Shown here: one piece after another, positions 2,205 through 60,652 of the stretch
Numbering within the stretch: position 1 is the first letter of the stretch
Layout: each line of letters starts with the position of its first letter
IMG/VR virus record: IMGVR_UViG_3300028895_000122
Strand: one strand, 5' to 3'
Source of the DNA: a virus
DNA length: 64,000 nt
The notes under the pieces: generated by a model
Database searches by the model: none
Seen by the model: only the letters and a program-made list of their open reading frames with translations
Told to the model about the DNA's origin: nothing
Program-made: the position numbers and the translations under genes

Positions 2205-2239
2205 AATATTATTATAACAAATATTGTTTATTAATGCTA

Positions 2240-12348: not shown

Positions 12349-12369
12349 AATTAAATACCTTTTTTATAT

Positions 12370-12561: not shown

Positions 12562-12565
12562 TATT

Positions 12566-12910: not shown

Positions 12911-12936
12911 AATGCTATTTATCGCTAAAATAATGT

Positions 12937-13185: not shown

Positions 13186-13272
13186 TTTGAAACCCCTTTA
13201 AAAGATGTTAAAAGTATTTAGTGAATTATGTATAGAAATACTTAATGTCCGTCCTAAAACATAAATAATAGT

Positions 13273-15823: not shown

Positions 15824-16523
15824 CTTCTGCTGCTTCTTGTTCTAATATTTTAATTTGTTTCATGATATCTAAATATCTATTAGCAATATCATCTCTTGAT
15901 TCTGTTAACGGCATTCTAAATAGTGATTCTTCTAATCTAGAAATGCTTTCTGCTAACGATAATTCTTTATCAAATATTTCTTTAATGCGTTCGTTTGGAT
16001 TACCGTATAAGTCTGTGATAACTTTCATACGAGTTTCGTCATCACCTTCGATATACATTTTTCTAATTTCACTAGCACTTTTAATTGATTTACCTAGTAT
16101 TGTAAAGTTAATAGTAGGAGCAACAAAAACATATCCGTGTTCTGACATAGGTGCTAGTTTATTTGTTAGTGGTTGTAAGTAACTTGGGCTTCCATCTTTC
16201 TTTGGTTTGAAACTAATGCGATCAACATCCTTTTGACTTAATGCATAAATTACTGCGGTGTTGTTTGCATCAAATTGACTTGTAACTTCTACAGCATTGT
16301 ACGGGCTTTTAACTTGTACAATCTGTTGAGCAGGAACACCAAGTTCTTGCATCATTACAGTCTTTTGTTCAAAACTAAAAGGACTTGTTACAGGTGCCTG
16401 TTTGCCAGAACTAACCACAAAGACATTATTAGCACCATACTGTTTAACTAACGTTTCGTAGGTGCCTGCATGACCTTTATGAAATGGGTGGAATCGACCG
16501 GGATAAATTACTATTTTACGCAT
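15801..16523 (-). CDS. NadM-type nicotinamide-mononucleotide adenylyltransferase-like protein
   Basis: The N-terminal IYPGRFHPFHKGH equals the GRFQPFHKGH (H/T)xGH signature of archaeal-type NMNAT (NadM) and cytidylyltransferases. Confidence 0.65.
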   Translation of the reverse strand: MRKIVIYPGRFHPFHKGHAGTYETLVKQYGANNVFVVSSGKQAPVTSPFSFEQKTVMMQELGVPAQQIVQVKSPYNAVEVTSQFDANNTAVIYALSQKDVDRISFKPKKDGSPSYLQPLTNKLAPMSEHGYVFVAPTINFTILGKSIKSASEIRKMYIEGDDETRMKVITDLYGNPNERIKEIFDKELSLAESISRLEESLFRMPLTESRDDIANRYLDIMKQIKILEQEAAEDEINGIR

Positions 16524-16546
16524 AATGTAGTATTTATGCGAAAGTA

Positions 16547-16717
16547 TTAATCGTCAGCTGGGTAAATTTCTACTAGTACGCCTTCGCCGGCAAGCTCTTT
16601 TAAAACTGCATCTAAGTTTTCTAAGATGTCTGCTGTTAATACTGTTTGTGTTTCATCATCATCACGTACTAATTTACTGAACTTAATTGTTAATGCGTTT
16701 TCAACTACTTTAGCCAT
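16547..16717 (-). CDS. small acidic protein (56 aa), missed by 60-aa cutoff
   Basis: TGAGGAAatataATG SD context. The ATG abuts the stop of 16718..17431. Protein MAKVVENALTIKFSKLVRDDDETQTVL... Confidence 0.35.
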   Translation of the reverse strand: MAKVVENALTIKFSKLVRDDDETQTVLTADILENLDAVLKELAGEGVLVEIYPADD

Positions 16718-17431
16718 TTATATTTCCTCATTAATTATGTTGTATGTTTTCTTTAAAAGTCCGGGCGCACATATATTAAAAATAGTTTCTATGCCAGGAT
16801 CATTATAGTCAAAGAAAAAATGTTCTTGACAGTATTTACTTGGAAAATTTAACCAACGTTTAAAAGTTCGACATGGTACAACTGTATCGTGATAAATCTT
16901 TAAAAATTGTTTTAGTTTTTGTTTGTGATCGTTTGTTACAATACACGTTTTTAAATAAGTTCTATACTTGTAATCAGAATTTTTTCTAACCAATGAACCC
17001 GAATCGGAATTAATCTTTATTTCTGTTATGCCGGGATCTACTATACCAGGCAATGTTAATAATTCTTCTAAAAACGGTATATTATTCGAATAACAATAAA
17101 AACGGTGTGTTGTAAGAACCAACCGATATTTAAGATCCTGTTCATTGAAGAAGTTAATAAATGAATTTAAGTTTTCTTTTGTGATATCGGTAATCGGTTC
17201 TCTATGCATTGAGCCAACCATACCAAGTGAACGCGGTACATAAAACCCCGAACGTTTATATCTTTCTTTAATTCGTAAGCGTTCATCTAATCCGACACTG
17301 GTTAATCCTCGTACAGAATTAACTTCTTGAAGATACCCACATGCAGACCATTGATACTCATTAAAGAATAGTTTATTGCTTTTCTTTATACTATAATTTA
17401 GGTTTGAATTGGTCCAAGACAATGTATCCAT
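16718..17431 (-). CDS. hypothetical protein
   Basis: Packed ORF. No motif recognised. Confidence 0.4.
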   Translation of the reverse strand: MDTLSWTNSNLNYSIKKSNKLFFNEYQWSACGYLQEVNSVRGLTSVGLDERLRIKERYKRSGFYVPRSLGMVGSMHREPITDITKENLNSFINFFNEQDLKYRLVLTTHRFYCYSNNIPFLEELLTLPGIVDPGITEIKINSDSGSLVRKNSDYKYRTYLKTCIVTNDHKQKLKQFLKIYHDTVVPCRTFKRWLNFPSKYCQEHFFFDYNDPGIETIFNICAPGLLKKTYNIINEEI

Positions 17432-19688
17432 CGTCGCTTATTGTGCCCTCGGGCATTTTCTCCGTTGTTAATTTATTATTCTGTTCGAAGATTATTTCTT
17501 CACCATCTAAAAGAACTGTTAATGTTGTGTCTTTAAGATTTTCAAATAATATCTTTTTACTTAGCGGTACTTTAAGTAATTCATTGATTTTTCTTGATAT
17601 AGGTCTAGCACCCATTTTGCTATCATAACCAACATCTGCAAGAAAATCAATTACAGCTTCAGTAACATTAATTTTAATATTTTTATTTTTAAGTTGTTCT
17701 TTAAGATCTATAATAAACTTATTAACAACCTTCTTAATACTTAGCTCATCTAATTTGTTGAACTTAACAATCGCATCTAATCTATTACGCAATTCAGGTT
17801 TGAAGAACTCTTTAACAGCTTTATCTTCTTCTCCAGACTTTTCTAAGTCTTGCCCAAAGCCGATGTTAAAGTTTTCGTTATCTCTTGCACCTAAGTTACT
17901 TGTTAATAAAATAATGCAGTTCTTTATATTTACTGTTTTTCCTGAAGAACTTGTAATATGTCCTTCGTCGAGCATCTGTAACATAATGTTAGACACATCT
18001 GGATGAGCCTTTTCAATTTCATCAAACAATAAGATACTATATGGATCTTTAGTAATGTCTTGAATAAGTTTACCACCACCTAAATTACCATCTTCGTATC
18101 CTACATATCCAGGCGGTGCACCAATTAACTGTGACACACTATGTCGTTCTTGATATTCTGACATGTCATAACGTAACAGTTCCATGTCTAGGTTCTTGCT
18201 TAACAATTTAGCAAACTCAGTTTTACCGCAGCCTGTAGGTCCAAGTAATAAGAAGCTAGCAACTGGTTTATTTTCTGTAGTTAATCCACCGAAGCTAACA
18301 TAGATACGATCAAGCATTTCATCTACTGCGTCATCTTGACCGTAAAGTTTCTCTTTGATGTTGGCTCCTAAGTCGCGCACCTTATTACAATCTTCATTTT
18401 TAAGACGTTCAACAGGAACAGTAGTAATCTTCTCTGCTTCTCTGAAAATAAGGTCTGGTGTAATCTCAACATCCTTATTATCTTTAGCACGTTGTTTAGC
18501 ACATGCCGCATCTAATAGATCGATTGATTTATCTGGATTCTGTCTATCGTGGATATAACGTGTTGCTAAGTCCACCGCAGTAATACAGGCCTCTTTATCG
18601 ATTCGAACGCTGTGGAATTCTTCGAGTCGACTAGAAAGTCCGTTTAGGATTTTGATAGTTGTATCATGATCTGGCTCGTCGATATTGAGTTTATAGAATC
18701 GACGCATTAATGCACGATCCTGTTCAAATGTTTCGTAAAACTCTTCCCAGGTAGTTGAAGCAATTACTTTAAGTTTGCCGCGTGTAATAGCAGGCTTTAA
18801 CATGTTGGCCATATCTAAGTTGCCATTGCTACCAGCACCAGCACCTGACATAGTGTGTGCTTCGTCGATGAACAAGATACCGTTATTAAGTGTTTCCAAT
18901 GCTTTAATAACTTCTTGGAACTTTTCTTCAAACTCACCACGATACTTCGAACCAGCTAATAAAGATCCAACTTCCAATGACCATACTGTATGTCCTTTAA
19001 GAAACTCAGGAACATCACCTTCGGCTATTTCCTGTGCAAGGCCTTCTACGATTGCTGTTTTACCAACGCCAGGGTCACCTACCATTAGTACATTTGATTT
19101 AAACTTCTTAGCAAGAATTTCAACCGCGTCTTGAATTTCGTTTGCACGACCAATCAATGGTTCGAACTTACCTTCTTCTGCTAATTCGGTTAAGTTAGTA
19201 CAGTGCTCATACAGAATGTCTTCCGCTTGGTCGTTGTTTAATGTTACTTTAGCGCCTTCTTTGTAACTCTTGTTCCAGTGCTCAACAAATGAATCTTTAT
19301 CGACACCGTGTTTCAATAAGAAGTAAGATGCATGACTATTTGTTTCTGCAGAAATACTTAGGTAAAGATCAATGGTTGTAATTTGTTTACGTCCAGAGAA
19401 AAGAACTTGTGTTCCTGCTCTATTGAATATGCGTTCTAATGCATTTGTACGTTTTGGTGTGTCTTTGTATTGTGGGTTAACAATATTTTTAAGATTGACT
19501 AAATATCCTTCGAGTTCTGAATCAAATAAATCAGTATCAACTCCGTAGTTCTTTAATACTTCATCAAATGGTTCGAATCGAATAAGTGCTAACAGTAAAT
19601 GTTCTGTTAATACATATTCATGTTTCTTCTGTTTTGCAATGTGAATTGCATATTCTGTAATTTGTTCAATCTCTGGATTTACTTGCAT
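17391..19688 (-). CDS. ClpA/ClpC-like two-AAA+ domain unfoldase (765 aa)
   Basis: A Clp_N-like [10 protein letters not shown] segment. AAA1 Walker [23 protein letters not shown]2 [16 protein letters not shown]. The length matches ClpA (no ClpB middle domain). Confidence 0.8.
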
Positions 19689-20043
19689 TGGCTTTTTTCT
19701 TCCTAGTAGTTTTTTTCTTAGTAGGTTTAAGACTTTTTATAGCCTCTTCTAAAAATGGTGATAATTCTGTACGTTTAATATTACCTAAATAATCTGTAAA
19801 CTTAACAAAATCTTTAATATTATCCTCATCTTTGTATTCTATAACAGGATTAAAATAATAATGTGGTTTTTCTTTTGTTACTAATAAATTAACTTGTTCA
19901 CCAACATCTGGACCAATTATATAGTCTTTGTCTGTAGTGTTTAATGTTATTAACATTTCTAAACCAAGTTTCTGATTTTTAAAAGGTGCTGTAAAATCAA
20001 CATCCTTCATTCCTGTCTTTTTCGCTTTTACTAATTTTAACAT
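19666..20043 (-). CDS. hypothetical protein with basic C-terminal tail
   Basis: Packed ORF. No motif recognised. Confidence 0.4.
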   Translation of the reverse strand: MLKLVKAKKTGMKDVDFTAPFKNQKLGLEMLITLNTTDKDYIIGPDVGEQVNLLVTKEKPHYYFNPVIEYKDEDNIKDFVKFTDYLGNIKRTELSPFLEEAIKSLKPTKKKTTRKKKANASKSRD

Positions 20044-20051
20044 AAAAATAT

Positions 20052-20831
20052 TTATTCTTGCAAGTCTTTTATTGATTTAATTAACTCGGTTGGAATATTT
20101 TTCGGTAATCGAGCAAGTAACTTAACATACATATCTCCCTGTCTGTTATGTTTTCCTTTTAACCCTTTGCCTTTGACCCTCATTAAGGTATTAGGTTGAC
20201 TTTTTGCTGGTACAGTTAGTACAATTTTTTGTCCTAAAATAGTTTCAACTTCTAATTTCTTTCCTAGTATGAAATCCCAAAAGTCTAAGGTATATTCCTT
20301 AGTTAAATCTAATCCATGTCTTAACCATTCCTTATCATCTTGTATATTGAATATTATGTGTACTTCAGAATTAGGAATTAAATTTGGGTAGCTAATAACA
20401 TCTCCGTCGTTTATACCTAACGGAATTTCAATTTCTGCTGATCTTACCTGGCCAGAGGCATCTTGAATTGTAACTATCTTTTTGCCGCCGGTAGCAATAG
20501 TTTCTAATTCGACAATTAGTCTAACCCTGACGATATTCGTTCTACGATGTTGTCTTTGCGAGTGATTAAAGAAGTCGTTGAATACACTATTAAAGTCTTG
20601 ACCTTGTCTAAAGTTAAATTCCCTAAAATGTTCTCCGTTTCCAAATTGGTCATGTTGCTTACGTTTAGATTCATCACCTACTATAGCATACGCATCACCA
20701 ATTTCTTTAAATTTAGTTTCATCACCGCCGCGGTCAGGATGATGCTGCATCGCTAGTTTGCGATATGCTTTTTTAATTTCATCTTGGGTGGCTGTTTTTT
20801 TAACACCTAATACTTCATACGGATCACGCAT
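20052..20831 (-). CDS. DnaJ-like J-domain protein (no Zn-finger)
   Basis: N-terminal [36 protein letters not shown] is a J domain with HPD. Confidence 0.7.
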
Positions 20832-20835
20832 AATA

Positions 20836-21093
20836 TTAATTATTCCATAAGTATATGAGGCCAGGAATTATTATAAAAAATTGAGGAAGAAAGTTAGTTA
20901 TAATAGCTTTTTCATTCCACTTATATCCTACATAAACCCAACCGCTCGCGCCAATTAGTTGTAAGTAACTGTTCCACGGAGTCATGCCTAATACATGGAA
21001 TACCATTGCTATTAGAATTATTATAGCACTAGCCCATTTAACAATGAATACAGGATCAGTGTAGGTTTTTGTTTTTGTTTCTGTCGTTGGCAC
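20836..21093 (-). CDS. small membrane protein
   Basis: Hydrophobic helices, two or three predicted. Confidence 0.3.
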
Positions 21094-21442
21094 TTAGTTC
21101 TTCTTCTAATTCTTCGAATGCTGCGTCGACTTGTTCTTCTATGTTGTCGCCTTCATCTAATGTAAAGATATATTCTTTTTCATCGGTGGTAACATGTACT
21201 TCATATTGTTCGTCTTGGTTCGCTTGTCGATCCCACCAATCTTTGTATAATGTTGTAAATTCATCTGTATCTAAATCAACATCAAACCCTTCATCTTCTA
21301 GTGATGGATCAAAGTGAACAAGTTTCATTAAGTTACCGAAGTTAACGTTATTCAACCCATTTTGATATAGTATTATTAGAAGCTCTAATAACATTTCTCT
21401 CGTAGGTGGTGTGAATTCTTCTAGTCTTTGTGTTAGTGTCAT
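21056..21442 (-). CDS. hypothetical acidic protein
   Basis: Packed ORF. No motif recognised. Confidence 0.4.
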   Translation of the reverse strand: MTLTQRLEEFTPPTREMLLELLIILYQNGLNNVNFGNLMKLVHFDPSLEDEGFDVDLDTDEFTTLYKDWWDRQANQDEQYEVHVTTDEKEYIFTLDEGDNIEEQVDAAFEELEEELSANDRNKNKNLH

Positions 21443-21454
21443 TATAATACTTAT

Positions 21455-21488
21455 TAAAAAAGATAGGTGCCCTGTATTATCAAGGCAC
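21455..21488 (-). terminator. putative rho-independent terminator after the TctC-like gene
   Basis: Minus strand reads GTGCC-12 nt loop-GGCAC followed by CTATCTTTTTT. Confidence 0.35.
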
Positions 21489-21498
21489 TTTATCTAAT

Positions 21499-22566
21499 TT
21501 ATTTTACTAAGTTTTCTTTATATACTGATCTAAGACCTAAGGCTTGTGTGTTGAACTTAACCAGTGTTTTTAGAGCATCTTCAGTAGCAAGACCCATTAA
21601 GATATCAACAGTTTTGTTACCATCTTCACCGATAACCCAATCATACTCTCCAATCTTCTGATGGAATACTGATGCTGATTCAGGATTCTCTGCCATTTGT
21701 TTACAAGCTAAACGATACTTCTCGGTATTAGGATTACCTTTGTTAACCCACAATGCTTTTTGAATACTATCACGCCATGTGTGAATCAACGTGTATGCAT
21801 CATAAAGTTCGCCACTAGGTGCTTTACCCCATTTTGCTTTAAACACATCTTCAAACCGTTTACCTGCATAGTTAGGATCATCGTTGTGTTTACCAGTTGA
21901 AATATCTAGTACACCATGATGGAACCAAGTTTCAGCTTCACCTTTGGCAATAATAGGTTCTACTTTCTTTTTGTATGCTGCTGGGTTCTCACGTGAACCA
22001 AGTAACTCACCGCGTTGGAAAGCTAGTCGACGTTCGCCACCTGACATGCCTGATACCCATGCTACTTTATCTTTAAAGATAGCAATGTATTCATCAGTGG
22101 TTTTATCTGGACCACCAATCATTAATGCAATAGCGATACCTTCTGGAACCATACCAGATCCTGCTGCAAATGAGAAGCCATCGTCTTCGTTAACACCTGT
22201 ACGTTTTGCAACGATGATGTTTAAGTTTTGATGACATACTGAATCGTATTCACGATAATCGTAATCTACTTTTTCCTGCACAAACGATACACCGTTACCA
22301 CCATGTGATACCATAATTACATTATCATTTTCATGACGTACTGTATTGTGAAATTTGTTAGGACCTGCCTTATCACGTGCGCCAGGGTTGTAAGAAATCA
22401 CAACATTCTCGCCTTCTAATGCTGGTGCCTTAGCAAATTCTTTTGCTACAATTTCAGCCCATACACTTGTACCACCACCAGGTTTCTGTGGTGACATAAG
22501 CTCAACATCAGCGTATGCAGAAGTTGAAACTAATGCTGCTGCGATTACTATATTTTTAAATTTCAT
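21499..22566 (-). CDS. TctC/Bug-family periplasmic substrate-binding protein
   Basis: A signal peptide, then KPGGGTSVWAEIVAKEFAKAPALEGENVVISYNPGARDKAG matching the PGGGTDxxAR...V(V)xNxPGAxG core of the tripartite tricarboxylate transporter binding family. Confidence 0.6.
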   Translation of the reverse strand: MKFKNIVIAAALVSTSAYADVELMSPQKPGGGTSVWAEIVAKEFAKAPALEGENVVISYNPGARDKAGPNKFHNTVRHENDNVIMVSHGGNGVSFVQEKVDYDYREYDSVCHQNLNIIVAKRTGVNEDDGFSFAAGSGMVPEGIAIALMIGGPDKTTDEYIAIFKDKVAWVSGMSGGERRLAFQRGELLGSRENPAAYKKKVEPIIAKGEAETWFHHGVLDISTGKHNDDPNYAGKRFEDVFKAKWGKAPSGELYDAYTLIHTWRDSIQKALWVNKGNPNTEKYRLACKQMAENPESASVFHQKIGEYDWVIGEDGNKTVDILMGLATEDALKTLVKFNTQALGLRSVYKENLVK

Positions 22567-22575: not shown

Positions 22576-24162
22576 CTATGAATAGTTAATGTTTCCTTTA
22601 TTCTTCCAACCCCACGCTAGAACAATAAAAATTAATGTAAAAATAATAACAAACAATGGGTGTCCTAGTAAATCTTTTGAATCCATGCTTGCCATCATAA
22701 GTTGTCCTTTGCCTACAGACTCACCTGTAAACCAAGACTTTATTTGTATTAAAGGATAACCACCTATGTTGTATAATTTTAGTTGGTATGTTAGTAGTTC
22801 AATTTTATCACCTAATATAAATCCAATCATCATTGCTGGTCTACTAAACTTAAATTGTCTCATTGCTAAACCTAACAATGTAAATATTAATAATAAGATT
22901 ATGTTTTCTATTCCGTATGTCCCGAAGCCACTTGTGTAAGTTGCCCATAATATGAATATCAGTAAGAATGGGAAATAGTATTTGTAAGGCACATAAGCAA
23001 TCATTGTAAAGTATCGCATGAAGTACAAACATAATAGTCCTGTTATTAATGTTGCACCTAAAAAGCCAATGCTCAAGCTATTAAAGAATAACTTGTCACC
23101 TAATAGACTTTGTCCTTCTAAAGTTAGTTCGAATCCTACAGCACCAAATAATCCAATTACTATTGCAGCAAATGGTGCTCCTGGAATACCAAACAAAATA
23201 GTAGGAATAAATGAACTAGCCTTTTGTGCATTGTTACTACCTTCCGGTCCAATGACACCTTTAATGTTACCGTTACCAAACTTTTCTTTTGGGTTAGTTG
23301 CTACGGCTTGACCATAGCTTAACCAATCAGACATAGCACCACCTAAGCCTGGCAGGAATCCAATAATAGATCCAATTAATCCTCCACGCATTGATAGCTT
23401 CCATTCTTTAAATGATACTTTAATCCCATCCCAAAGTTGTTGTGTATGCTCACCTAAGTCGCGTCTTTCTGCTAATGCTGTTTTCTTTAGTGCGAGTAAA
23501 ATCTCAGGCATTGCAAACAATCCAGCAATAACAGGAATAAGCGGAATGCCTTTACCTACGCCACTACCAGACAAGAATTCAAAACCCATTGTAAATCGTG
23601 GCTCTGCTGTTACTGGATCAGTTCCAATCATTGCTAAGAACACGCCCAATGATAATGCTACTAAAGAACGTATCCAATATTGATTAGATACAAAGCCGAC
23701 AGTAACAAAAGCAAGGACACACATTGCCCATAATTCTGCTTGTCCTACACCACCTTCTGTTGGCGGCAATATAACAAAGTCATAATAATAAGGTAACAAT
23801 AAGAATACAGCCGAACCCCATATTAAGCCATTTACCGTGCTTGTTGTGATGGCTGCGCTTAATGCATACGTTGCCTTACCTTGTTGTGCTAACGGAAACC
23901 CATCAACCATTGTTGCTGCGGAACTATTAGCACCAGGTATACCTAATAACACAGATGCAAAGGTATCCCCTGTTGTACTTGCTGCGACAACTGCTGTAAT
24001 GAATATAACGGCTAGATAAGGATCAACTGACTTTAACGCAACAATAAAAGGAAACAAGGCTACGAGGCCTGTTGTTGCTCCTGCTGCTGGAATAATGCCA
24101 ATTAATAGTCCATAAACTATTCCTGCGAATAATGCTAAAAATGCGAGTAAATAAAATTCCAT
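22576..24162 (-). CDS. TctA-like (DUF112) multi-pass membrane permease
   Basis: 528 aa with more than 12 hydrophobic helices. Two internally repeated halves carry Gly-rich GIPGA/LPGLGG segments. It lies 9 nt upstream of the TctC-like gene. Confidence 0.5.
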   Translation of the reverse strand: MEFYLLAFLALFAGIVYGLLIGIIPAAGATTGLVALFPFIVALKSVDPYLAVIFITAVVAASTTGDTFASVLLGIPGANSSAATMVDGFPLAQQGKATYALSAAITTSTVNGLIWGSAVFLLLPYYYDFVILPPTEGGVGQAELWAMCVLAFVTVGFVSNQYWIRSLVALSLGVFLAMIGTDPVTAEPRFTMGFEFLSGSGVGKGIPLIPVIAGLFAMPEILLALKKTALAERRDLGEHTQQLWDGIKVSFKEWKLSMRGGLIGSIIGFLPGLGGAMSDWLSYGQAVATNPKEKFGNGNIKGVIGPEGSNNAQKASSFIPTILFGIPGAPFAAIVIGLFGAVGFELTLEGQSLLGDKLFFNSLSIGFLGATLITGLLCLYFMRYFTMIAYVPYKYYFPFLLIFILWATYTSGFGTYGIENIILLLIFTLLGLAMRQFKFSRPAMMIGFILGDKIELLTYQLKLYNIGGYPLIQIKSWFTGESVGKGQLMMASMDSKDLLGHPLFVIIFTLIFIVLAWGWKNKGNINYS

Positions 24163-32450: not shown

Positions 32451-32876
32451 TTAAAAAATAATTTCGTTTTGTGTACCGACATTGTGTAAAGAACCATCTA
32501 GAATCTTTTGTTTATGGTCGGCGTGTGTAGCTTCAGAGAATGTATCATCGCTTTGTGGTTCATCACTTATTAGTAGTATGTCGTTATTGTCGACTCTGCG
32601 TAGTACCATTTCTTCACCATTGATATCAACGGTAATACCACGTGTCCATCTACCATGTTTAACAAGAATATATTCACCAACCTGTACATCAGTTTGGTCA
32701 TCACCTACTGCATATACTTCTGCCCAACGTGGACGAATACCTTGTGTTTTGGCATCGTCTTTAGGAAGTAAAATCCCACCAGATGTTTTACGTTCACCAA
32801 ACTCCATATCCTTTACTAGAATATGATCATGTAATGGTTTAAGACCTTTGATATTGTATTTTGTGATGGTTGACAT
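32451..32876 (-). CDS. GroES-like co-chaperonin (gp31 analogue)
   Basis: LKPLHDHILVKDMEFGERKTSGGILLP...AEVYAVGDD follows the GroES pattern (RPLHDRVIVK...SAGGIVL...VLAVG). The mobile-loop region is extended. Confidence 0.6.
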   Translation of the reverse strand: MSTITKYNIKGLKPLHDHILVKDMEFGERKTSGGILLPKDDAKTQGIRPRWAEVYAVGDDQTDVQVGEYILVKHGRWTRGITVDINGEEMVLRRVDNNDILLISDEPQSDDTFSEATHADHKQKILDGSLHNVGTQNEIIF

Positions 32877-34383: not shown

Positions 34384-34655
34384 GATATATCAATTTTATC
34401 TTGGTGATCATTGCCGTCTTCTTTCTTGGTCATATCGGCAAATTTCTTTTGTAATGCTGCATTATAACTTTCTAAGGCCATTTGTAATTGATGAACAACA
34501 AGTTGATTATTCATACTATACGCAAAGCCAAGTTTCTTTGTTATCTCAGAAATTTTTTCTTGTATATCATCTATAGATAATTCACTAAGTTCTGTTGTGC
34601 TTAAGAATGGGTGTTCCATGTTTAAATAAATTGGTCTAATTGTGGTGGCTGCCAA
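34380..34655 (-). CDS. hypothetical small protein
   Basis: Packed ORF. Confidence 0.4.
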   Translation of the reverse strand: MAATTIRPIYLNMEHPFLSTTELSELSIDDIQEKISEITKKLGFAYSMNNQLVVHQLQMALESYNAALQKKFADMTKKEDGNDHQDKIDIS

Positions 34656-34978
34656 CCTTCTGGTTTTAATACTTTGCCATCTTTACGTTTATGTACTTTG
34701 CCTGTTTCCGGATCAATTTTAGCAAAGTTGGTACGCATAACTTCTTCCCAAGCTCCGGCGCCATTGAAACCGCCAGTACGGATTGCACCAATCGTAACGA
34801 CCAAAATATCAATTAGGGCATCTAATTGTTCTACTTTGTTTTCGTCTTCGATTGCTTCTTGAAGTTCTTTGTATTCTTCTGCGATTAAGTCTAGATACAT
34901 TGCATAGTTTGGACAGCTAGGTTCTTGGTCACATGCAATGTGGAATTTTTCGATATCGTTAAATGGATTCAGGTTCAA
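34622..34978 (-). CDS. MazG-like all-alpha NTP pyrophosphohydrolase candidate
   Basis: IAEEYKELQEAIED...EQLDALIDILVV is an EExxE...D.L.D pattern. Start moved to the TTG at 34978, which has AGGAG 7 nt upstream. Confidence 0.35.
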   Translation of the reverse strand: MNLNPFNDIEKFHIACDQEPSCPNYAMYLDLIAEEYKELQEAIEDENKVEQLDALIDILVVTIGAIRTGGFNGAGAWEEVMRTNFAKIDPETGKVHKRKDGKVLKPEGWQPPQLDQFI

Positions 34979-35001
34979 TATTATACTCCTATTAAAATAA
35001 A

Positions 35002-35030
35002 AGTATAACTGAACCTGAATCAAAAGTCAA
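35002..35030 (-). promoter_or_regulatory. sigma70-type promoter P8 (TTGACT-N17-TATACT)
   Basis: Minus strand reads TTGACT tttgattcaggttcagt TATACT, then ttttattttaaTAGGAGtataataTTG. Confidence 0.5.
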
Positions 35031-42132: not shown

Positions 42133-42969
42133 TCACCTTAGGTGTTGGGTTTCTTTAACTATAAAATTTTTGTCTTTATACATGCGCTGGTCAGCTAAGT
42201 GGATTATATCATCAATATCACTAGCTTCTAAACTTGTTGCATAGCCCATACTACAAGAAATTTGTTGCGGTCCTGCATCTGTAAAAATAGGTTTATTAAT
42301 TGCATCATAAATCTTATCCATGATCATGTTAATAACTTTGGTACTAATTGTTTTATTAATTAAAATAACAAATTCATCACCACCGTAACGACATACAATA
42401 TCGCTATCGCGAAGTAAGTGCTGCAATCGTTTTGCTACGACAGCCAGGACTTGATCACCTGCAGAATGACCACCAGGACCATCATTGACTGCTTTAAACT
42501 TGTTTAAGTCAATAAAGATTAATGAAAAATGATCAACTATAAACGATGCTTCGTTAAAAAATGCACGTCTAGTTAATGTGCCTGTTAGCGAATCAAAATT
42601 AATTTCATCATGGTAATCATCAAATCGAGCCACAGCATGTTCATCATCTAGTTTAAAAACATCAATGGCCAAACGAATCGTTTCCATGTTGCGATTTTTT
42701 GCTAGTATTACCCGTCTATCACTTAGCGTGTATCTATCCTCAGCTGTTGATCTGTCCATAAATTTATGCATCATATCAGCATGTTTTAATGCTGGGTTCT
42801 CGATTAAAATGTCTAAATCTTTGCCAATGAGCTCGTTTGGTTTATACCCAAATACATGAGCACCATACTCATTTATTGTAACAATTTTATGCTCTTTATT
42901 AAGCATAAGCATTCCAGAGCCGCACATATCAAGCATCTTTAAGAGAACTTCCGTTGTTGGTGTATTCAT
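42133..42969 (-). CDS. PAS-GGDEF diguanylate cyclase with intact A-site and RxxD I-site
   Basis: DSLTGTLTRRAF...FIDLNKFKAVNDGPGGHSAGDQVL...LRDSDIVCRYGGDEFVIL...LADQRMYKDK. RDSD lies five residues before GGDEF (the I-site). The N-terminal ~110 aa are PAS-like. Confidence 0.8.
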   Translation of the reverse strand: MNTPTTEVLLKMLDMCGSGMLMLNKEHKIVTINEYGAHVFGYKPNELIGKDLDILIENPALKHADMMHKFMDRSTAEDRYTLSDRRVILAKNRNMETIRLAIDVFKLDDEHAVARFDDYHDEINFDSLTGTLTRRAFFNEASFIVDHFSLIFIDLNKFKAVNDGPGGHSAGDQVLAVVAKRLQHLLRDSDIVCRYGGDEFVILINKTISTKVINMIMDKIYDAINKPIFTDAGPQQISCSMGYATSLEASDIDDIIHLADQRMYKDKNFIVKETQHLR

Positions 42970-45750: not shown

Positions 45751-46122
45751 TTAGTAGTCTAGTTGGTAAAATTCTAGCTCTAGTCCTTTCTTTATCCACT
45801 GTTCAATGAACTCAGTGCCAACGTCACAGCTTACATAATCGTTACCTTGCATACCCTGTTCGCTGTATGTAACATCATCACCAATTAGACCCAAAAAGTT
45901 CAATTCGGCTCGCAACTCGTTCATGAATGTTTTATCAGTGTAAATAAGTCCATCTTCGTTGATATTCCAAGAACTAGTATCAAATTCGATCTGTAACTCA
46001 CCCCACATCTTACCATCTGCATCTTTGGTTGCATCCAGTTCGAGCTCGGTTGTCTTAACTGATTTAACAGAACTTGACCAGAGTCCATCGCCACCTGTTT
46101 TAATTGAACGATCAAATCTCAT
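45751..46122 (-). CDS. hypothetical protein
   Basis: Packed ORF. Confidence 0.4.
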   Translation of the reverse strand: MRFDRSIKTGGDGLWSSSVKSVKTTELELDATKDADGKMWGELQIEFDTSSWNINEDGLIYTDKTFMNELRAELNFLGLIGDDVTYSEQGMQGNDYVSCDVGTEFIEQWIKKGLELEFYQLDY

Positions 46123-46125: not shown

Positions 46126-46551
46126 TTACTCCACTTCACACAGGTAAGCATAAGCCCTGTGATATTTCTCAAGGCGTTTAAAGTCTTTCTCGCGCAAACC
46201 TTTCATGCGAGTAATATCGCTGTTATGTCTTAGGTCTGCTTTCTTAATAGCACGAGCAATGTGATTTAACGAAACTCGTTCAATATAATCATCGTATGGT
46301 TCGTGATCAGCATGAGTGAGTAATTTAATGATCGTAACAGTATGCTCTTTAAATCCTTCTGATATTAACTGTTCTGCCGTCCATTCCGTGTCTTCAATGA
46401 GATCATGTAACACCGCCGCGATCATTGCTTCTATGCCAAACGATTTAACTTCGTGCATAACGTGTAAACAATGCAGGATATAAGGCTGACCGCCTTTATC
46501 TTTCTTATCTGCAAAAGCTTCTGATGCAATTGCAATAGCTTTACCTAACAT
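46126..46551 (-). CDS. HD-domain small alarmone hydrolase (SpoT/Mesh1-like (p)ppGpp hydrolase) candidate
   Basis: GGQPYILHCLHVMHEV...AMIAAVLHDLIEDTEWTAEQLISEGFKEHTVTIIKLLT matches the RelA/SpoT HD-domain pattern GEPYI.HPL.VA...AALLHDV(I)EDT...FG..VA.LV.GVTK. Confidence 0.65.
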   Translation of the reverse strand: MLGKAIAIASEAFADKKDKGGQPYILHCLHVMHEVKSFGIEAMIAAVLHDLIEDTEWTAEQLISEGFKEHTVTIIKLLTHADHEPYDDYIERVSLNHIARAIKKADLRHNSDITRMKGLREKDFKRLEKYHRAYAYLCEVE

Positions 46552-46580
46552 TTCAACTCCTTTTAGTTACTATATTTCAT

Positions 46581-46609
46581 AGTATAGGTGATTTTGGAGA
46601 AATTGTCAA
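46581..46609 (-). promoter_or_regulatory. sigma70-type promoter P5 (TTGACA-N17-TATACT)
   Basis: Minus strand reads TTGACA atttctccaaaatcacc TATACT, then ...AAAAGGAGttgaaATG for the HD gene. The -35 overlaps the upstream stop codon. Confidence 0.5.
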
Positions 46610-49163: not shown

Positions 49164-49354
49164 TTTTTTATTTCCTTACAGTAAATTTCTTTGGCTGCAT
49201 GTTGACAATGCATCATGTTACTTTCTTCATTGCATTTTAAAACAAACTCAGCACGGTCGGCTTGTGTGCTTTCGGAACATCTATATTCAGGTCCGCAATC
49301 ACACCCTACCAGAAATATAGGAATTAATAATACTAAGTATTTCATTGATCCCAC
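49160..49354 (-). CDS. small Cys-rich lipoprotein candidate
   Basis: [15 protein letters not shown] is a lipobox-like signal. Six further Cys residues. Confidence 0.4.
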
Positions 49355-49701
49355 CTTTTATGTTTGCGAAAAACGAAGTTGTCTGGATCGGTTCCTTCTG
49401 GTTCTGGCTGTCCAGTAAATCCTTCTGCTTTTTGCTGCTTAATTAATTCTTTCAACTCGGCAATTTCATTGCGTAGTTCTTGAATTTCGTTGTTGTTATC
49501 AACCTCGTTGCGTAGTTCTTGAACAACACTCTTTGTTTCTTTTTTTGTAACTCGTTTATATGCTTCAGGGGACTTTTGCTTACATACAAGGAGATCTTGC
49601 TTACAAGTATAATCTTGATATGCCGGAATAGCGATTGCTGCTAGGATTGCGACTATTGCTACAACAATCATCATTTCAATTAACGTAAAACCTTTATTCA
49701 C
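49342..49701 (-). CDS. type IV pilin / pseudopilin-like protein
   Basis: MNKG|[27 protein letters not shown] is a canonical short-leader class III signal with the GFTLIE N-methylation box and a hydrophobic alpha-1 helix. The short body has a Cys pair and two QELRNE repeats. Confidence 0.7.
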
Positions 49702-49775: not shown

Positions 49776-51410
49776 TTACTTGGTAGTGCTACGATCGTAT
49801 GTTAGCTGTTTTGCAGCCTGCATAGTCATCATGTTCATGAAGTTTGCTACTTCACTATCACCACCTACTACAGGTCCTGTGCCATCACCACTACCACCAA
49901 AGCTAGTAACGTTCTGTGGTACTGCACGATTAGCATAAGCCTGTGCCCATACGTTGTGGATCTTAACCTCTGCATCAAGTTTCTGCTGCAAGGCACCATC
50001 CGCTTCAAGTACCAAACGTTTGTACTCAGAGTCACCACGACCTTCTGCTTTCTTCATTTCCTCGTACTCAAGAGCCGCAAGTTTCAACTGTTCTTTTTCA
50101 AGCTTCTGTTGTGCTGCAACCTCTACAAGTTTTTCCGCACCAAGGATTGCCACTGCTTTTGCTTTTTCGGCATCTACAACAGCTCGGATCTTTTCCTGCT
50201 CTTTCTCATACTTTGCAATGGTTACGTCACGTTTACCATTTTCTTCCGCAGTAATCGCTTCCTGCTTAGCCTGTTCAGCTTTTGCTTTTGCAGTAATAAT
50301 CGCCATTGTTGCTTTACGTTTCTCAGCAATCTGATCCAACGTTTTCTGTTCAAAGCCCCAGTCAGTAATCTGATATCCAGATACAGTAATACCGTACGCT
50401 TTCAAGTCAGTTTCGAAACGTTTAGCAAGACCATCTTCACCATATGCAATAACTGGAATGTTCTTAACAACTGATTTGCCAGTTACTTCATCCTTAACAA
50501 CATCCTGTTTCAACTCAGTGCGATACTTACCGTTAGTAACCTGATCACGTGACCACTCAATATAAGTACCACGCTGTTCTGCGTATGCACCCTCAGAAGT
50601 CATAAGACCAGCAGTCAAGTTCTGTGCTTCGTCTGTTACTGTTTTAATAAGTTTATATGCCACACCACCGTTTGAACGAAATGCTTTATGTAGTTTAAGC
50701 ATATTTGCATCATCTTTTGGCAAGTCAAAACGTGCTTTACCGAAAATAGTACCCGTACCACCATCTTGGTAACGAACCGGGATACCATCTACATCAATTG
50801 ACGTTTCACCATCTGCTGCGGTACGATCAAAGTCGTAAGTTACAACGTCACGATAAACTGTGACATTACCAAACCATTGTGTATAAAATCCTGGTTCAAA
50901 CTTAACAAAAAGTTTACCGTTTGGATACTGTACAACCGTTCGGTTACCAGCATCGTTAATACCAAATAGCAATGGGCTCACTGCCACAGTAAGGATCAAA
51001 ACCACAATCCCCAAAATCGCCTTCCAATTAATTACCATGTTAAAATTTCCTCTAAAGTTAGTATTTGGTGGCTCATCATTACCCTCATCTCCGCCGCCAC
51101 CGTTAGCAGAGTTGCCTACAAAAGTTTCCTTTAGTTTGGGTTTAATATTACGTTCCCAAGCCTTTCGCAAGAAACCTTTAGAATTTTCGATTTTTTCTCT
51201 ATGTTCGGTTATAGTTCTATCTTTATAACGCTCAATGATTTCAACTGTTTCGTCAAACGTTAAATTGTCACGTTCATTGATATGATCAATTAATGCTTTA
51301 ACTCTGCCCGGAACATGTCTAAGGTTTTCATTTTCGAATGCCGTTGCAAGACTATCAACATACATCTTGAGTTTTTCTAACTCGGCATCAGTATATTTTT
51401 CTTTACTCAT
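49776..51410 (-). CDS. SPFH/band-7 (HflK/C-, flotillin-like) membrane protein
   Basis: One TM helix (ILGIVVLILTVAVSPLLFGI). SPFH core ...GITVSGYQITDWGFEQKTLDQIAEKRKATMAIITAKAKAEQAKQEAITAEENGKR... followed by a long Ala/Glu/Lys coiled coil. Confidence 0.6.
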   Translation of the reverse strand: MSKEKYTDAELEKLKMYVDSLATAFENENLRHVPGRVKALIDHINERDNLTFDETVEIIERYKDRTITEHREKIENSKGFLRKAWERNIKPKLKETFVGNSANGGGGDEGNDEPPNTNFRGNFNMVINWKAILGIVVLILTVAVSPLLFGINDAGNRTVVQYPNGKLFVKFEPGFYTQWFGNVTVYRDVVTYDFDRTAADGETSIDVDGIPVRYQDGGTGTIFGKARFDLPKDDANMLKLHKAFRSNGGVAYKLIKTVTDEAQNLTAGLMTSEGAYAEQRGTYIEWSRDQVTNGKYRTELKQDVVKDEVTGKSVVKNIPVIAYGEDGLAKRFETDLKAYGITVSGYQITDWGFEQKTLDQIAEKRKATMAIITAKAKAEQAKQEAITAEENGKRDVTIAKYEKEQEKIRAVVDAEKAKAVAILGAEKLVEVAAQQKLEKEQLKLAALEYEEMKKAEGRGDSEYKRLVLEADGALQQKLDAEVKIHNVWAQAYANRAVPQNVTSFGGSGDGTGPVVGGDSEVANFMNMMTMQAAKQLTYDRSTTK

Positions 51411-52988: not shown

Positions 52989-53253
52989 ATTCCCATAATA
53001 CTGCATTGCAATGATTATGAACTGCACCTATTGTCATGCCTGTAACATGATCGTGGTGTAAGTGTACTGGCCATTTGAAAAACCCATCTGGATAATATTC
53101 AGGGTGAACTTTCTTTTTTGCTATCTTTAAAGCAGGCATTCCATCTAGAGGTGCGCCACAATAATAGCAAAGACCTTTTTGGTGACGTACATACTCTTCC
53201 CTGAGTGTACGTCTCTCCTTTGGTTTAAGTTTATCATAGTTTTGTGGTTCCAT
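52975..53253 (-). CDS. Endonuclease VII-family (His-Me finger/HNH) protein
   Basis: CYYCGAPL...VHLHHDHVTGMTIGAVHNHCNAV parallels T4 endo VII CLICQREL...NHLDHDHELNG...RGLLCNLCNAAEG. Start taken at the ATG overlapping the PseT stop. Confidence 0.55.
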   Translation of the reverse strand: MEPQNYDKLKPKERRTLREEYVRHQKGLCYYCGAPLDGMPALKIAKKKVHPEYYPDGFFKWPVHLHHDHVTGMTIGAVHNHCNAVLWEYEGE

Positions 53254-54119
53254 TAGAACGCTCCGTAATTTACCTGGAACACCGTAAATCCCAAATGTCG
53301 CCACATATGAACCACTTGGTCACGATCGTCAAATACTCCAATCACATTATAACGACCTTTGATGTGATTGTTATAAATTTCTTCTTTAATAAGAGTATCT
53401 TTACGATTGTCACCTGCAGGACGAATATAAAACTCATCAAACGGAACACCATGCTTTGTTAGCCAATCTGCAGTCTCATCTTTACATGATCCATCACGTC
53501 CTGACACTACAACCAATTTGGTTGATGGTCCTGCTACTTTTGATACCGCGTAGATAACATCTGGGTTAGGAAGATCTGTTCCGACTTTGTCCCATTCGAA
53601 TGGTCCACGTCCGTTCATTTGTGCAACAGTACCATCAACATCAACAATAATACAATCTTCCAAATTGCTATCATACTCTGGTGTTGGCCACCAATGTTCA
53701 CGATGACGATCAAACATACCCATAATAACTTTAGCACCTACAGGATGTTCGCGTTTAGCATCGCGGTCCAGACATACACCAAGATGTACATCAGTAAACA
53801 GTTCTTCACGATAACCAATACCACGATCGTCAGCAATGCCTTTCCAGTTTTTGTTGCGATCTGGATTCAGGTTAGTGTCAGATACGATAACAGATTTACC
53901 GTGCGACAGAGCTTCTTGAGCCATAGCCATTGCTGTAACAGTTACAGTAGACTCGCGCCATTTGCTGAACTTGTTATAACGATCACGGCCCTGCATTGCT
54001 AGACGAATGTCATCACGATTTACATTAATATAATCTGGGTTTTGTTTAATGAACTCGTTAGTCCAAGTAGTTTTACCTGAAGCTGGCAGTCCAACTGTTA
54101 GTACGATTTCTTGTGTCAT
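53253..54119 (-). CDS. pseT: polynucleotide 5'-kinase/3'-phosphatase (T4 PseT orthologue)
   Basis: Collinear with T4 Pnk: VLTVGLPASGKTTWTNEFIKQNPDYINVNRDD, VIVSDTNLNPDRN, IIVDVDGTVAQMNGRGPF (HAD DxDGT), RKDTLIKEEIY, DDRDQVVHMWRHLGF. Confidence 0.85.
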   Translation of the reverse strand: MTQEIVLTVGLPASGKTTWTNEFIKQNPDYINVNRDDIRLAMQGRDRYNKFSKWRESTVTVTAMAMAQEALSHGKSVIVSDTNLNPDRNKNWKGIADDRGIGYREELFTDVHLGVCLDRDAKREHPVGAKVIMGMFDRHREHWWPTPEYDSNLEDCIIVDVDGTVAQMNGRGPFEWDKVGTDLPNPDVIYAVSKVAGPSTKLVVVSGRDGSCKDETADWLTKHGVPFDEFYIRPAGDNRKDTLIKEEIYNNHIKGRYNVIGVFDDRDQVVHMWRHLGFTVFQVNYGAF

Positions 54120-54196: not shown

Positions 54197-54808
54197 TTAA
54201 GTCCTTGATTTCGAAGGATCTTTGACCCATCCGTTGTGTGTAGGAAGCATTAATTCCTCCCATTCTACTAAAATGGAGCCATTCCTAGCGATATTTGCCT
54301 CTACACAGACGTTAATATAGTCTGGGTCGTCCATTTCATATTCGGAATCCGTATCAGGATCTAATACCAATTTCTGTACAGTATTGTGATGAACGTGTCC
54401 GTGTATGTTATATCTTCCACGTAATTCAGCAGGATGAATAGGACTGTGGGTTAACCAGTGTCCTCTATAACGATCCATGCCGCGTACCACCTGGAAGTAT
54501 TTCATATATGCTTCAATAGGCATATCATCATGGTTGCCGAGAATAACTTTCTTATTGCCGTTGAGTTTTCCTACCTTTGCTAGATTATCCCAGCCTGACC
54601 CGGGCTCATCTTTAGTGCCAGGTCTTCCCATTGCAACATCACCTAAAACCCAAACCATGTCACGCTTCTTAACAATCGAATTCCAAGAGTCGTGTATCCA
54701 CTCGTCATGTTCTTTAGAGTTACTACCTTGGCGGCCATGTTCGCCGCTGAACTTAATAATGTTCTTGTGTCCTAAATGGAGATCACTTGTGAAATATACT
54801 TTACTCAA
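54197..54808 (-). CDS. calcineurin-like metallophosphoesterase
   Basis: SDLHLGH, WVLGDVAMG, ILGNHD and GHVHH motifs. Confidence 0.65.
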   Translation of the reverse strand: MSKVYFTSDLHLGHKNIIKFSGEHGRQGSNSKEHDEWIHDSWNSIVKKRDMVWVLGDVAMGRPGTKDEPGSGWDNLAKVGKLNGNKKVILGNHDDMPIEAYMKYFQVVRGMDRYRGHWLTHSPIHPAELRGRYNIHGHVHHNTVQKLVLDPDTDSEYEMDDPDYINVCVEANIARNGSILVEWEELMLPTHNGWVKDPSKSRT

Positions 54809-55041: not shown

Positions 55042-55243
55042 CTACCCACCTTAAGGGTTTCCAATAATACGGAAACCCCTCGTGAAGTTCCACAACGGCA
55101 TCAACTTCGGTATATTCTTCCTCCCATGATGCACGTTGTAACCATTTACGTTTGCCGTCGAGGGTCATTGGCAGAAATAGAAACTTATTACGTTGTATCC
55201 GCTTATCCCCGATCATTGGTTTTCTAAAAATAATCATACCCAT
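55034..55243 (-). CDS. hypothetical small protein
   Basis: Packed ORF. Confidence 0.35.
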   Translation of the reverse strand: MGMIIFRKPMIGDKRIQRNKFLFLPMTLDGKRKWLQRASWEEEYTEVDAVVELHEGFPYYWKPLRWVDD

Positions 55244-56295
55244 TCCAAACGTTTGATCTGTTTCAACAAAAATGCTTTCCAGTCTGGTTCTTCATTCTTG
55301 CTGTAATACATCATAGCAAGTGAGAACTCATAACCTTCTAATTCATTCTGACCTTTAATAGCAAACTCTTTACGGTCTAAATGCTTGTTAGCATTATAAT
55401 ACTCTGTAACAGAATTTACAATTAAGTTGGCTTTATGAATTACCTTATGCTGTAACTCTTGCATTTCTTTCAACACTTCAGGCTGATCAGCAATTAACGC
55501 AAAAACATCATCAGCTTCATCTTTCAACACTAATTCAATAAATGCATTAGGCTGGTTAACAAAGTCTTTAGCACGGTGACGTTCCAAATACCATGCACAC
55601 TTTTCTTTCCACCAGTTACCTTGACGATCAATTACAACATAACCTTCGACGTTAGTTAAAGTATCAAGTTCATCCAATTTTATAAGGCTTTCAAAACCAG
55701 TAAAGTATTCTTTTGGAATTGAACCTGGGTACATATACATACCAGTATCACGCTGACGAGCATTTAGCACAATCAAACGTGGTTCTGGATAGTGAAGCAC
55801 AATACGGAACTTTGGATCTGGATGAACCAATTCCATGTTTACAGTATAACCATCACGTTCGCACCACTTAACAAAATCAAACAAATCGTTGTCATTGTAC
55901 AAGATATCCATTGCCATGTTTGCATAATCAGAATGAATAGAAGTTTTAGACTTTAAACGCAAATCACCTTCGGAATCAACATAAGAGCTGATTAAAGAAC
56001 CATCTGCTTTGTTCATTACATACTGTGGATCTTCATATTCGATAAAGTCTACTTCACCTTTGTTAAAAAACTTATGCATCGGACGAGAAGCAATACGCAA
56101 TGGATTACCTTCGCAGTCAATCTGAAACATGATACCACGTGACTCTAATGCATCTGGCAGTAACCATGAGTCTTTATCAGTGAAGTGATAAGAGAATATG
56201 CGATAGCAGTCCTTACCAATTTCCTGATCAGAGTGGTAAAATGGAGTGTCGTCGTTTAACGACAAGTTCATTAAGTTGTTATATAATTCTTTCAT
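55234..56295 (-). CDS. rnlA: RNA ligase 1 (T4 RnlA orthologue)
   Basis: N-terminus MKELYNNLMNLS...YRIFSYHF...SWLLPDALESRGIMF...LRIASRPMHKFFN is near-collinear with T4 Rnl1 MQELFNNLMEL...YRIFSYNY...DWLLPDALECRGIMF...VRIASRPMEKFFN. VMNKADGSL is the KxDG nucleotidyl-lysine motif. Confidence 0.85.
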   Translation of the reverse strand: MKELYNNLMNLSLNDDTPFYHSDQEIGKDCYRIFSYHFTDKDSWLLPDALESRGIMFQIDCEGNPLRIASRPMHKFFNKGEVDFIEYEDPQYVMNKADGSLISSYVDSEGDLRLKSKTSIHSDYANMAMDILYNDNDLFDFVKWCERDGYTVNMELVHPDPKFRIVLHYPEPRLIVLNARQRDTGMYMYPGSIPKEYFTGFESLIKLDELDTLTNVEGYVVIDRQGNWWKEKCAWYLERHRAKDFVNQPNAFIELVLKDEADDVFALIADQPEVLKEMQELQHKVIHKANLIVNSVTEYYNANKHLDRKEFAIKGQNELEGYEFSLAMMYYSKNEEPDWKAFLLKQIKRLEWV

Positions 56296-59377: not shown

Positions 59378-60652
59378 ATGAAAGTTAGTGATATCTTACG
59401 AAAAATTGCAGATGCAGTTGATGCAGATGCAGAACAACAAGCAAAAAATCAAGACGCACAAGCCGCTCTTCATGCTCAAGACATTGAACAAGCAAAAGCT
59501 GATGCTGCTGAATTACAAGCAGGACAGGTTGCTCAAGTAGTTCAAGCTGCTAATAATATCAAACGTGCTGCTGAAAAAGACGCAGATGCAGTTGCTATGA
59601 GTGCTAGTCAACAAGCGCCAACACCAAATACCTATGAACCAACTCCTGCAGATGATCAACAAGAACCAAACACGCACGAGTTAACACCTGCGGATAATAC
59701 CGATGATACAGAAATTGAAGTAATGGTAACACCATTACAACAAAAGCATGAGTTATTAAAGAAAGCAACAGATACTGCCAATGATGTAGATAAGTTTGAC
59801 GATGATATGAGTGATCATAGAGATAATGAGCTTGACTTATTAAAGAAAATGGCTGGTATTAAAGATTCGCAACCTGCACCAGATGATTTATCGGACACGG
59901 CATTAATTCAATTATCGTCAGACGAATTTGATGTTAAACTAGATTCTTCAGAATATGTAGGTGAAGATTCTTATATATTCTACGACATCGAAACCGGCTG
60001 TTTAAGACGTACAGATGGCACACCTGGCGGTACTCCAATATGTATCGAAGGTATGTCAAAGATTTTGGAGTTCCCTACATTTGGTGACTTTCCACAACCT
60101 GGCGAAAGCAATACCATTTATATTGCTGCCGACACTAACTTAATATATCGCTGGGATGGATCACAATACGTTTCACTTGTTAGTTTAGGTGATGACGACA
60201 ATGTCCAAGAACTTCCAACAGTTGGAGACTTCCCTGCTACTGGCACCACTGATGTTATATACATCGCAGCCGATACAAATTTATTATATCGTTGGGATGG
60301 TAGTAATTATGTTTTAATTAGTAACGATCACGAAAGTGCAACAGTAGTAAATATTTTACCAACCGAAACTAAAACTGTTATTGTAACAGTACCAGGTGGT
60401 AATTTGAGTGCCAAATACATTGTATCAATTTTAGATCAAGCAGATGGCCGCTTTGCTTCTTCGGAAGTAATGGCATCATATAAAACATTAGATAATTCTG
60501 TAAGCCATAATCATTACAGTTTACTTGGTGATAAAATCAAGTATCGCCCTGATGTATTGTTTAATACATCTTATATTGAACTCACAATCACAAACAACGA
60601 CACAAACCCAATAACCGCTAGTGTAAGCCGTATTCCTTCTATATCTGTATAA
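59378..60652 (+). CDS. tail-fibre/adhesin-like protein with N-terminal coiled coil and two tandem ~40-aa repeats
   Basis: Repeats ...FPTFGDFPQPGESNTIYIAADTNLIYRWDGSQYVSL / ...LPTVGDFPATGTTDVIYIAADTNLLYRWDGSNYVLI. Confidence 0.45.
   Translation: MKVSDILRKIADAVDADAEQQAKNQDAQAALHAQDIEQAKADAAELQAGQVAQVVQAANNIKRAAEKDADAVAMSASQQAPTPNTYEPTPADDQQEPNTHELTPADNTDDTEIEVMVTPLQQKHELLKKATDTANDVDKFDDDMSDHRDNELDLLKKMAGIKDSQPAPDDLSDTALIQLSSDEFDVKLDSSEYVGEDSYIFYDIETGCLRRTDGTPGGTPICIEGMSKILEFPTFGDFPQPGESNTIYIAADTNLIYRWDGSQYVSLVSLGDDDNVQELPTVGDFPATGTTDVIYIAADTNLLYRWDGSNYVLISNDHESATVVNILPTETKTVIVTVPGGNLSAKYIVSILDQADGRFASSEVMASYKTLDNSVSHNHYSLLGDKIKYRPDVLFNTSYIELTITNNDTNPITASVSRIPSISV

Follow-up and report, generated by a model that had tools for sequence, protein, structure and literature searches.

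Aph1 from Bacteroides caccae (PDB code 7SMG) is a phage-encoded hydrolase of about 143 residues. Its gene lies directly downstream of that of the matching toxin, the (p)ppApp synthetase MuF-Apk2, in a temperate phage, where it provides immunity. The enzyme is specific for (p)ppApp, has no detectable (p)ppGpp hydrolysis and is active with Mg2+ as well as with Mn2+ (Ahmad et al., 2023; PMC10083569). All 12 assayed Aph1 homologues hydrolysed ppApp, with modest activity on ppGpp in only two, and six residues (D24, R96, D116, R119, K133 and Y134) are kept in Aph enzymes and not in (p)ppGpp hydrolases; the D24R/R119A double mutant of Aph1 gains ppGpp hydrolysis (PMC10083569). To delimit the Aph family, the same work uses homology to an HD-free stretch at the C-terminus of Aph1 (53 residues, Y90–E143); tetrameric assembly is a further trait of the family, and Aph1 is described as having eight helices versus at least nine in enzymes of the Rel/SpoT/Mesh1/PaSAH type.

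A second group of relatives is known from genetics. The hydrolase of Salmonella phage PVP-SE1 (gp220), a stand-alone gene product of a large virulent phage, was classed as a PbcSpo small alarmone hydrolase and neutralizes all five toxSAS tested, namely CapRel, PhRel, PhRel2, FaRel2 and FaRel (Jimmy et al., 2020; PMC7229694). ATfaRel from C. marina, which was placed in the same PbcSpo subfamily and is encoded in a bacterial three-gene toxin–antitoxin operon, neutralizes the same five. Four of these toxins pyrophosphorylate tRNA at its 3' CCA end, and both ATfaRel and Mesh1 enable the modified tRNA to be aminoacylated again in vitro, in the case of ATfaRel after modification by FaRel2 (Kurata et al., 2021); ATfaRel degrades toxSAS products that include the 3'-pyrophosphate of the tRNA CCA end. 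PaSpo, the hydrolase of phage SSU5, has been reported to remove the tRNA pyrophosphate likewise. In the literature that we searched, there was no infection experiment in which a phage-encoded hydrolase of the Aph1/PbcSpo kind rescues its phage from toxSAS, and no demonstration of tRNA-repair counter-defence during infection for any phage hydrolase.

The gene described here lies in a stretch of 64,000 nucleotides from IMG/VR virus record IMGVR_UViG_3300028895_000122 (the window).

46126..46551, minus strand: hydrolase gene with an HD domain, very probably of the Aph1/PbcSpo type (open reading frame, HD_4, PHROG 990, 7SMG, AF2 model)

The phage family of this hydrolase is already known, and the gene is a further member of it without a new mechanism: for stand-alone phage enzymes of the Aph1/PbcSpo type, a description with genetic tests exists (PVP-SE1), and Aph1 has supplied the biochemistry and structure of the family. 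The window protein resembles Aph1 in length class, in its HD/ED catalytic residues, in the six signature residues and in being phage-encoded. In contrast to the Aph1 gene, its gene is stand-alone, has its own promoter, sits in what seems to be a large lytic-type phage and has no synthetase that we could find.

Sequence and family membership

The reading frame begins with ATG and encodes 141 residues, including GGQPYILHCLHV and AAVLHDLIEDT, the motifs from which the original prediction had called a RelA/SpoT-type HD hydrolase. That superfamily assignment is borne out by matches to Pfam HD_4 (3.1e-8, exceeding the gathering score), PHROG 990 ('metal-dependent phosphohydrolase'; 5.7e-53) and TIGR00691 spoT_relA (3e-12), the last covering residues 5–89 only and the N-terminal 86 positions of the model. 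The protein is a member of the RelA/SpoT-hydrolase superfamily with a single HD domain.

A sequence search of the PDB gave one full-length match, Aph1 (7SMG; 1.1e-29), which aligns residues 2–139 of the query with residues 8–143 of the chain. Entries for Rel, SpoT and Mesh1 were found at 7e-7 to 0.04 and covered only the HD core (approximately residues 2–100). When the HD-free C-terminal 56 residues (86–141) were used, Aph1 alone was matched in the PDB, through its residues 90–143 (E = 1.6e-11), and no Rel, SpoT or Mesh1 entry appeared even at E ≤ 10. The SpoT/Mesh1 likeness of the original label is confined in sequence to the HD core of the N-terminal half; over the full length the match is to Aph1 only. 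Very probably the protein belongs to the Aph1 family, and probably to the subfamily that the naming scheme for RelA/SpoT homologues calls PbcSpo.

Relatives of the hydrolase were detected by tblastn in 291 phage records, the closest being in Leptolyngbya phage Lbo-JY46 (57% identity). PVP-SE1 gp220 aligns with 99% of the query at 44% identity and agrees with the signature at five of its six positions (D, D, R, K and Y), but has no equivalent of R96 and, as annotated, bears an N-terminal extension of ∼20 residues and a C-terminal tail; PVP-SE1 and the window phage, and likewise their hosts, are unrelated at the DNA level. IMG/VR holds 543 confirmed viral matches to the family, so that a correct functional label affects the reading of many large-phage genomes.

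Structure and catalytic centre

A confident AF2 model of the monomer, built with 59 homologues (pLDDT 95.6, pTM 0.90), has a compact, all-helical HD fold, in which the additional helices at either end of Rel and of other small alarmone hydrolases are missing. It superposes on 7SMG end to end (Foldseek TM 0.91 normalized on either chain, r.m.s.d. of 1.5 Å, 46% identity over 138 columns), with the last helix (residues 121–139) closing the 141-residue chain. Against Mesh1, PaSAH, SpoT and Rel, the query-normalized TM scores are 0.72–0.81 (0.77–0.81 for the first three by Foldseek), and normalization on those longer chains gives 0.17–0.67, the values for Mesh1 and PaSAH falling to 0.62–0.67. These (p)ppGpp hydrolases share the superfamily fold and the metal and catalytic residues with the window protein, but differ from it in their extra helices, in their substrate and in sequence (20–27% identity).

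The original prediction had proposed that the metal site be checked by structure prediction; the set of metal and catalytic residues is complete. The metal ligands are H27, H49–D50 and D106 and the catalytic pair is E53–D54; together with N110 they align with H33, H53–D54, D110, E57–D58 and N114 of Aph1, respectively. The metal and catalytic residues are invariant across 119 homologues.

Substrate specificity

All six residues of the Aph signature are present, as D18, R92, D112, R115, K129 and Y130. SpoT/Rel, Mesh1 and PaSAH have an arginine at the position of D18 and lack both R115 and the K129–Y130 motif; in Escherichia coli SpoT the position of R115 is occupied by threonine. The window protein reads D18-K19-G20 where SpoT carries R-S-S, so the guanine-recognition motif RxS of Rel (R43/R44/S45, ahead of PY..H) is absent. 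D18 and R115 are kept in all 119 close metagenomic homologues and in 81 of 82 homologues from viral contigs. On these grounds the substrates are probably of the adenosine type. Judging from its relatives, the enzyme would strip the 3'-pyrophosphate from ppApp and pppApp with Mn2+ or Mg2+ and would act on (p)ppGpp weakly or not at all.

The original prediction had instead made the protein a (p)ppGpp hydrolase. On such a reading, the phage would degrade the stringent alarmone of the host so that transcription and translation continue throughout infection. An HD core common to SpoT/Rel (TIGR00691 at 3e-12; PDB entries of Rel/SpoT at 1e-6) speaks for such an activity, as do the two Aph homologues with modest ppGpp activity and the habit of database annotators of naming relatives 'guanosine-3',5'-bis(diphosphate) 3'-pyrophosphohydrolase'. 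However, the resemblance to (p)ppGpp hydrolases ends after the N-terminal half, and the C-terminal half matches only Aph1, an enzyme that leaves (p)ppGpp intact. In addition, D18 replaces the guanine-contacting arginine of Rel/SpoT, and R115 is kept, whereas its counterpart in Aph1, R119, has to be changed to alanine for ppGpp cleavage, apparently to make room for the guanine O6. The database names are automatic transfers and not experiments. Alarmone degradation as the function is thus unlikely and the substrate originally named is not upheld, although some hydrolysis of ppGpp may occur, given the two active homologues among the 12 assayed.

Another 3'-phosphorylated compound, such as NADPH, pGpp, a PAPS-like nucleotide or a novel adenosine-based immune signal, is a distinctly improbable substrate. 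The superfamily is promiscuous, with Mesh1 acting on NADPH and having been crystallized with PAPS (PDB codes 5vxa and 9chy), and an orphan bacterial hydrolase of this kind has been described as metabolically promiscuous (PMC9765508). Nevertheless, because the Aph signature is complete and every assayed homologue hydrolysed ppApp, a (p)ppApp-type substrate is the simplest expectation, and the window offers no pointer to any other.

Relatives are routinely labelled 'ppGpp pyrophosphohydrolase' or 'GTP pyrophosphokinase', while the signature points to adenosine 3'-pyrophosphates instead. With the substrate corrected in this way, the reading shifts from manipulation of the starvation response of the host to the disarming of toxic-synthetase immunity; it is more likely that the hydrolase detoxifies the products of toxic synthetases than that it tunes host ppGpp.

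Expression signals

The hydrolase gene is preceded by the following signals.

TTGACA 46609..46604, 17-nucleotide spacer, TATACT 46586..46581, minus strand: σ70-type promoter (11 of 12 consensus positions)
46562..46557, minus strand: ribosome-binding site AAGGAG, 5 nucleotides before the ATG at 46551 (direct reading of the sequence)

The promoter, which had been proposed from inspection of the sequence, sits 30 nucleotides upstream of the gene. At a threshold of at least 11 of 12 matching positions, the window contains 12 such sites on the coding (minus) strand and two on the plus strand, against an expectation of 2.4 ± 1.7 per strand from first-order Markov simulations; at loose thresholds, promoter-like sites in the window are no commoner than in shuffles.

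58566, 54180, 51895, 46609, 45639, 41289, 40539, 32129, 28627, 26358, 10627 and 4124, minus strand: first base of the −35 element of each near-consensus promoter

Most of the 12 sites end 23–33 nucleotides 5' of a start codon, as does that of the hydrolase. Since the near-consensus sites exceed chance and precede start codons, there is good support for the promoter of the hydrolase as a member of a host-type promoter family, and the 12 together suggest a heavy reliance on the host RNA polymerase. A near-consensus σ70 promoter combined with a strong ribosome-binding site means that host RNA polymerase, in unmodified form, should be able to transcribe the hydrolase gene without phage factors.

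Genomic neighbourhood and the search for a partner synthetase

A gene of no assigned family lies 3' of the hydrolase and is probably co-transcribed with it.

45751..46122, minus strand: 123-residue open reading frame, no family, 3 nucleotides 3' of the hydrolase stop codon

It adjoins the hydrolase in six of six contigs of the same phage, and a 133-residue reading frame occupies the other flank. Neither flanking product matches a Pfam or PHROG family. The 123-residue product also has no match in PADLOC; that of the 133-residue product to PbeC is marginal (7.6e-4) and was disregarded. No homologues of either were found near 80 related viral hydrolase loci, so they are not conserved partners. 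A terminator search 3' of the 123-residue frame gave a best hairpin of −7.3 kcal/mol (z = 0.67), no better than in shuffles.

An RSH synthetase domain (PF04607) or a MuF domain was sought with Pfam in the window reading frames of at least 95 residues, and a synthetase in all six-frame reading frames of the window with E. coli RelA as a phmmer query and with a scan for the ExQIRT and YxSxH motifs; none was found. Matches to the Pfam family 'Serglycin' in the concatenated window reading frames were spurious, arising from the inserted glycine–serine linkers. Likewise, neither domain was found in the 10 kb of the source contig beyond the start of the window, no synthetase was detected within ±6 kb at the 80 viral loci, where the SpoT query matched HD domains only, and three close relatives have none entered nearby in their precomputed Pfam annotation; these tests outside the window (phmmer with E. 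coli RelA and SpoT, precomputed Pfam) are weak for divergent toxSAS. With no synthetase seen and with flanking genes that are unassigned and unconserved, the hydrolase gene is regarded as stand-alone, unlike those of Aph1 and ATfaRel.

These results bear on whether the enzyme could give the phage immunity to a (p)ppApp-synthesizing toxin of its own. Phage-encoded Aph1 has exactly this role against the MuF-fused Apk2 of a Bacteroides prophage, and ATfaRel is also encoded beside its own toxin. Here, by contrast, neither a RelA_SpoT synthetase nor a MuF domain turned up in the window reading frames or the adjoining 10 kb, the two flanking products, of only 123 and 133 residues, bear no relation to synthetases, a synthetase could not be detected within 6 kb at any of the 80 related loci, and the hydrolase gene has its own promoter instead of belonging to a toxin operon. 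For the DNA covered, self-immunity is therefore very unlikely.

In related phage contigs, hydrolase genes were seen in the vicinity of the following features.

L008 521..745: Acb2/Tad1-hairpin (anti-CBASS/anti-Thoeris sponge) gene, 4 kb from the hydrolase
L012 1254..2069: EAL c-di-GMP phosphodiesterase gene, 3 kb from the hydrolase
L056 280..798 and 1919..2455: HD paralogues, this contig having three within 6 kb

Proposed function

The combination of residues, promoter and setting suggests a stand-alone adenosine 3'-pyrophosphate hydrolase that is transcribed by host RNA polymerase and undoes damage of the toxSAS type inflicted in abortive infection, a reading that we consider reasonably probable from the sequence. 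In this scheme, hosts or resident prophages would fire FaRel-, CapRel- or PhRel-type toxSAS as an abortive-infection defence and the hydrolase would neutralize them, which would preserve ATP pools and tRNA charging while infection proceeds. For the counter-defence role taken by itself the chances appear about even.

The terminal nucleotide of tRNA is an adenosine (A76). An adenosine-specific 3'-pyrophosphohydrolase could consequently act both on (p)ppApp and on modified tRNA, and we infer that pyrophosphorylated A76 is a plausible further substrate. Two genes situated 7–10 kb from the hydrolase are of interest in this respect.

53253..54119, minus strand: polynucleotide kinase-phosphatase (HAD_PNKP, AAA_33)
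55234..56295, minus strand: T4 Rnl1-type RNA ligase (RNA_lig_T4_1, T4_Rnl1_C)

A kinase-phosphatase and an Rnl1-type ligase form the classic phage tRNA-repair pair. It is conceivable, if somewhat doubtful, that the hydrolase is mainly a tRNA-end repair enzyme, which would strip the 3'-pyrophosphate placed on A76 by CapRel- or FaRel2-type toxins and, with the kinase-phosphatase and the ligase, make up a broad tRNA-repair toolkit. If true, such a toolkit would counter several tRNA-targeting abortive-infection systems. The window itself contains no tRNA genes. Between the two repair genes, a 203-residue reading frame (54197..54808, minus strand) shows calcineurin-like phosphoesterase motifs by eye and has no Pfam match.

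The hydrolase gene is a clean candidate, with strong expression signals, for testing the defeat of CapRel- and FaRel-type defences by a phage hydrolase during infection.

The GGDEF gene and other genes related to signalling

The original prediction had paired the hydrolase with a GGDEF gene 4 kb away and concluded that the phage carries enzymes for two second-messenger systems of its host, degrading alarmone and making c-di-GMP. The GGDEF gene is real, at a distance of 3.2 kb.

42133..42969, minus strand: PAS-GGDEF protein (PF00990, 1.8e-32)

It reads RDSDIVCRYGGDEF; the RxxD I-site is intact, as is the GGDEF motif. The protein matches seven PHROG families, each without a known function, which indicates that GGDEF proteins recur in phages but are uncharacterized. 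Because the substrate call for the hydrolase has moved away from (p)ppGpp, the framing in terms of two second-messenger systems is weaker than had been stated.

A further nucleotide-directed enzyme is encoded on the same strand; for its class, too, an action on alarmones in phages has been suggested.

34622..35023, minus strand: 133-residue PRA-PH/MazG-like nucleotide pyrophosphohydrolase (2.7e-7)

The phage and its contigs

The element is phage-like. Of 120 selected reading frames in the window, 105 share one strand, and the window also encodes PhoH and proteins resembling head-decoration and tail proteins. The sole distant kinship seen is that of an SPFH protein, which shares ∼42% identity with T5-like Vibrio phage proteins; by megablast, window positions 1–25000 and 45000–48000 matched none of 50,697 phage records. 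The remaining assigned genes are listed below.

5098..6084 and 8123..10315, minus strand: family-B DNA polymerase, intein-interrupted, in two reading frames
13273..13947, plus strand, opposite to the polymerase: NUMOD3 homing endonuclease
17391..19688, minus strand: ClpB-like AAA+ chaperone (AAA_2, ClpB_D2-small; assigned by sequence inspection)
20052..20831, minus strand: DnaJ chaperone (DnaJ, DnaJ_C; assigned by sequence inspection)
21499..22566, minus strand: 355-residue protein with a signal-peptide-like N-terminus and no family match, adjoining the TctA gene
22576..24162, minus strand: TctA-family tripartite tricarboxylate transporter membrane protein (1.4e-86; reading frame assigned from sequence)
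32451..32876, minus strand: Cpn10/GroES-like chaperone (family match)
49342..49701, minus strand: type IV pilin-like protein with an N-terminal methylation motif (7.7e-9)
49776..51410, minus strand: SPFH/Band-7 protein of 544 residues, adjoining the pilin-like gene

A transporter of the TctA type is an unusual cargo for a phage.

Ten metagenomic contigs carry the identical hydrolase, and the longest of them (ENA) measures 109,345 bp. The window is not simply contained in this contig, which stops at about window position 49365; beyond that point the window matches other contigs from the same and from other samples. The window reading frame at 59378..60652 (plus strand, 424 residues) appears in one other contig as two genes (186 and 250 residues), so assemblies or strains differ there. 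In ENA contig k141_364479 (ERZ27256790), positions 12000..21500, which extend up to 10 kb past the start of the window, contain genes for GTP cyclohydrolase I and a QueD-like PTPS, as well as for a glycosyltransferase, an epimerase, an aminotransferase and a UDP-glucose dehydrogenase, a set that would be consistent with DNA modification of the 7-deazaguanine type or with sugars.
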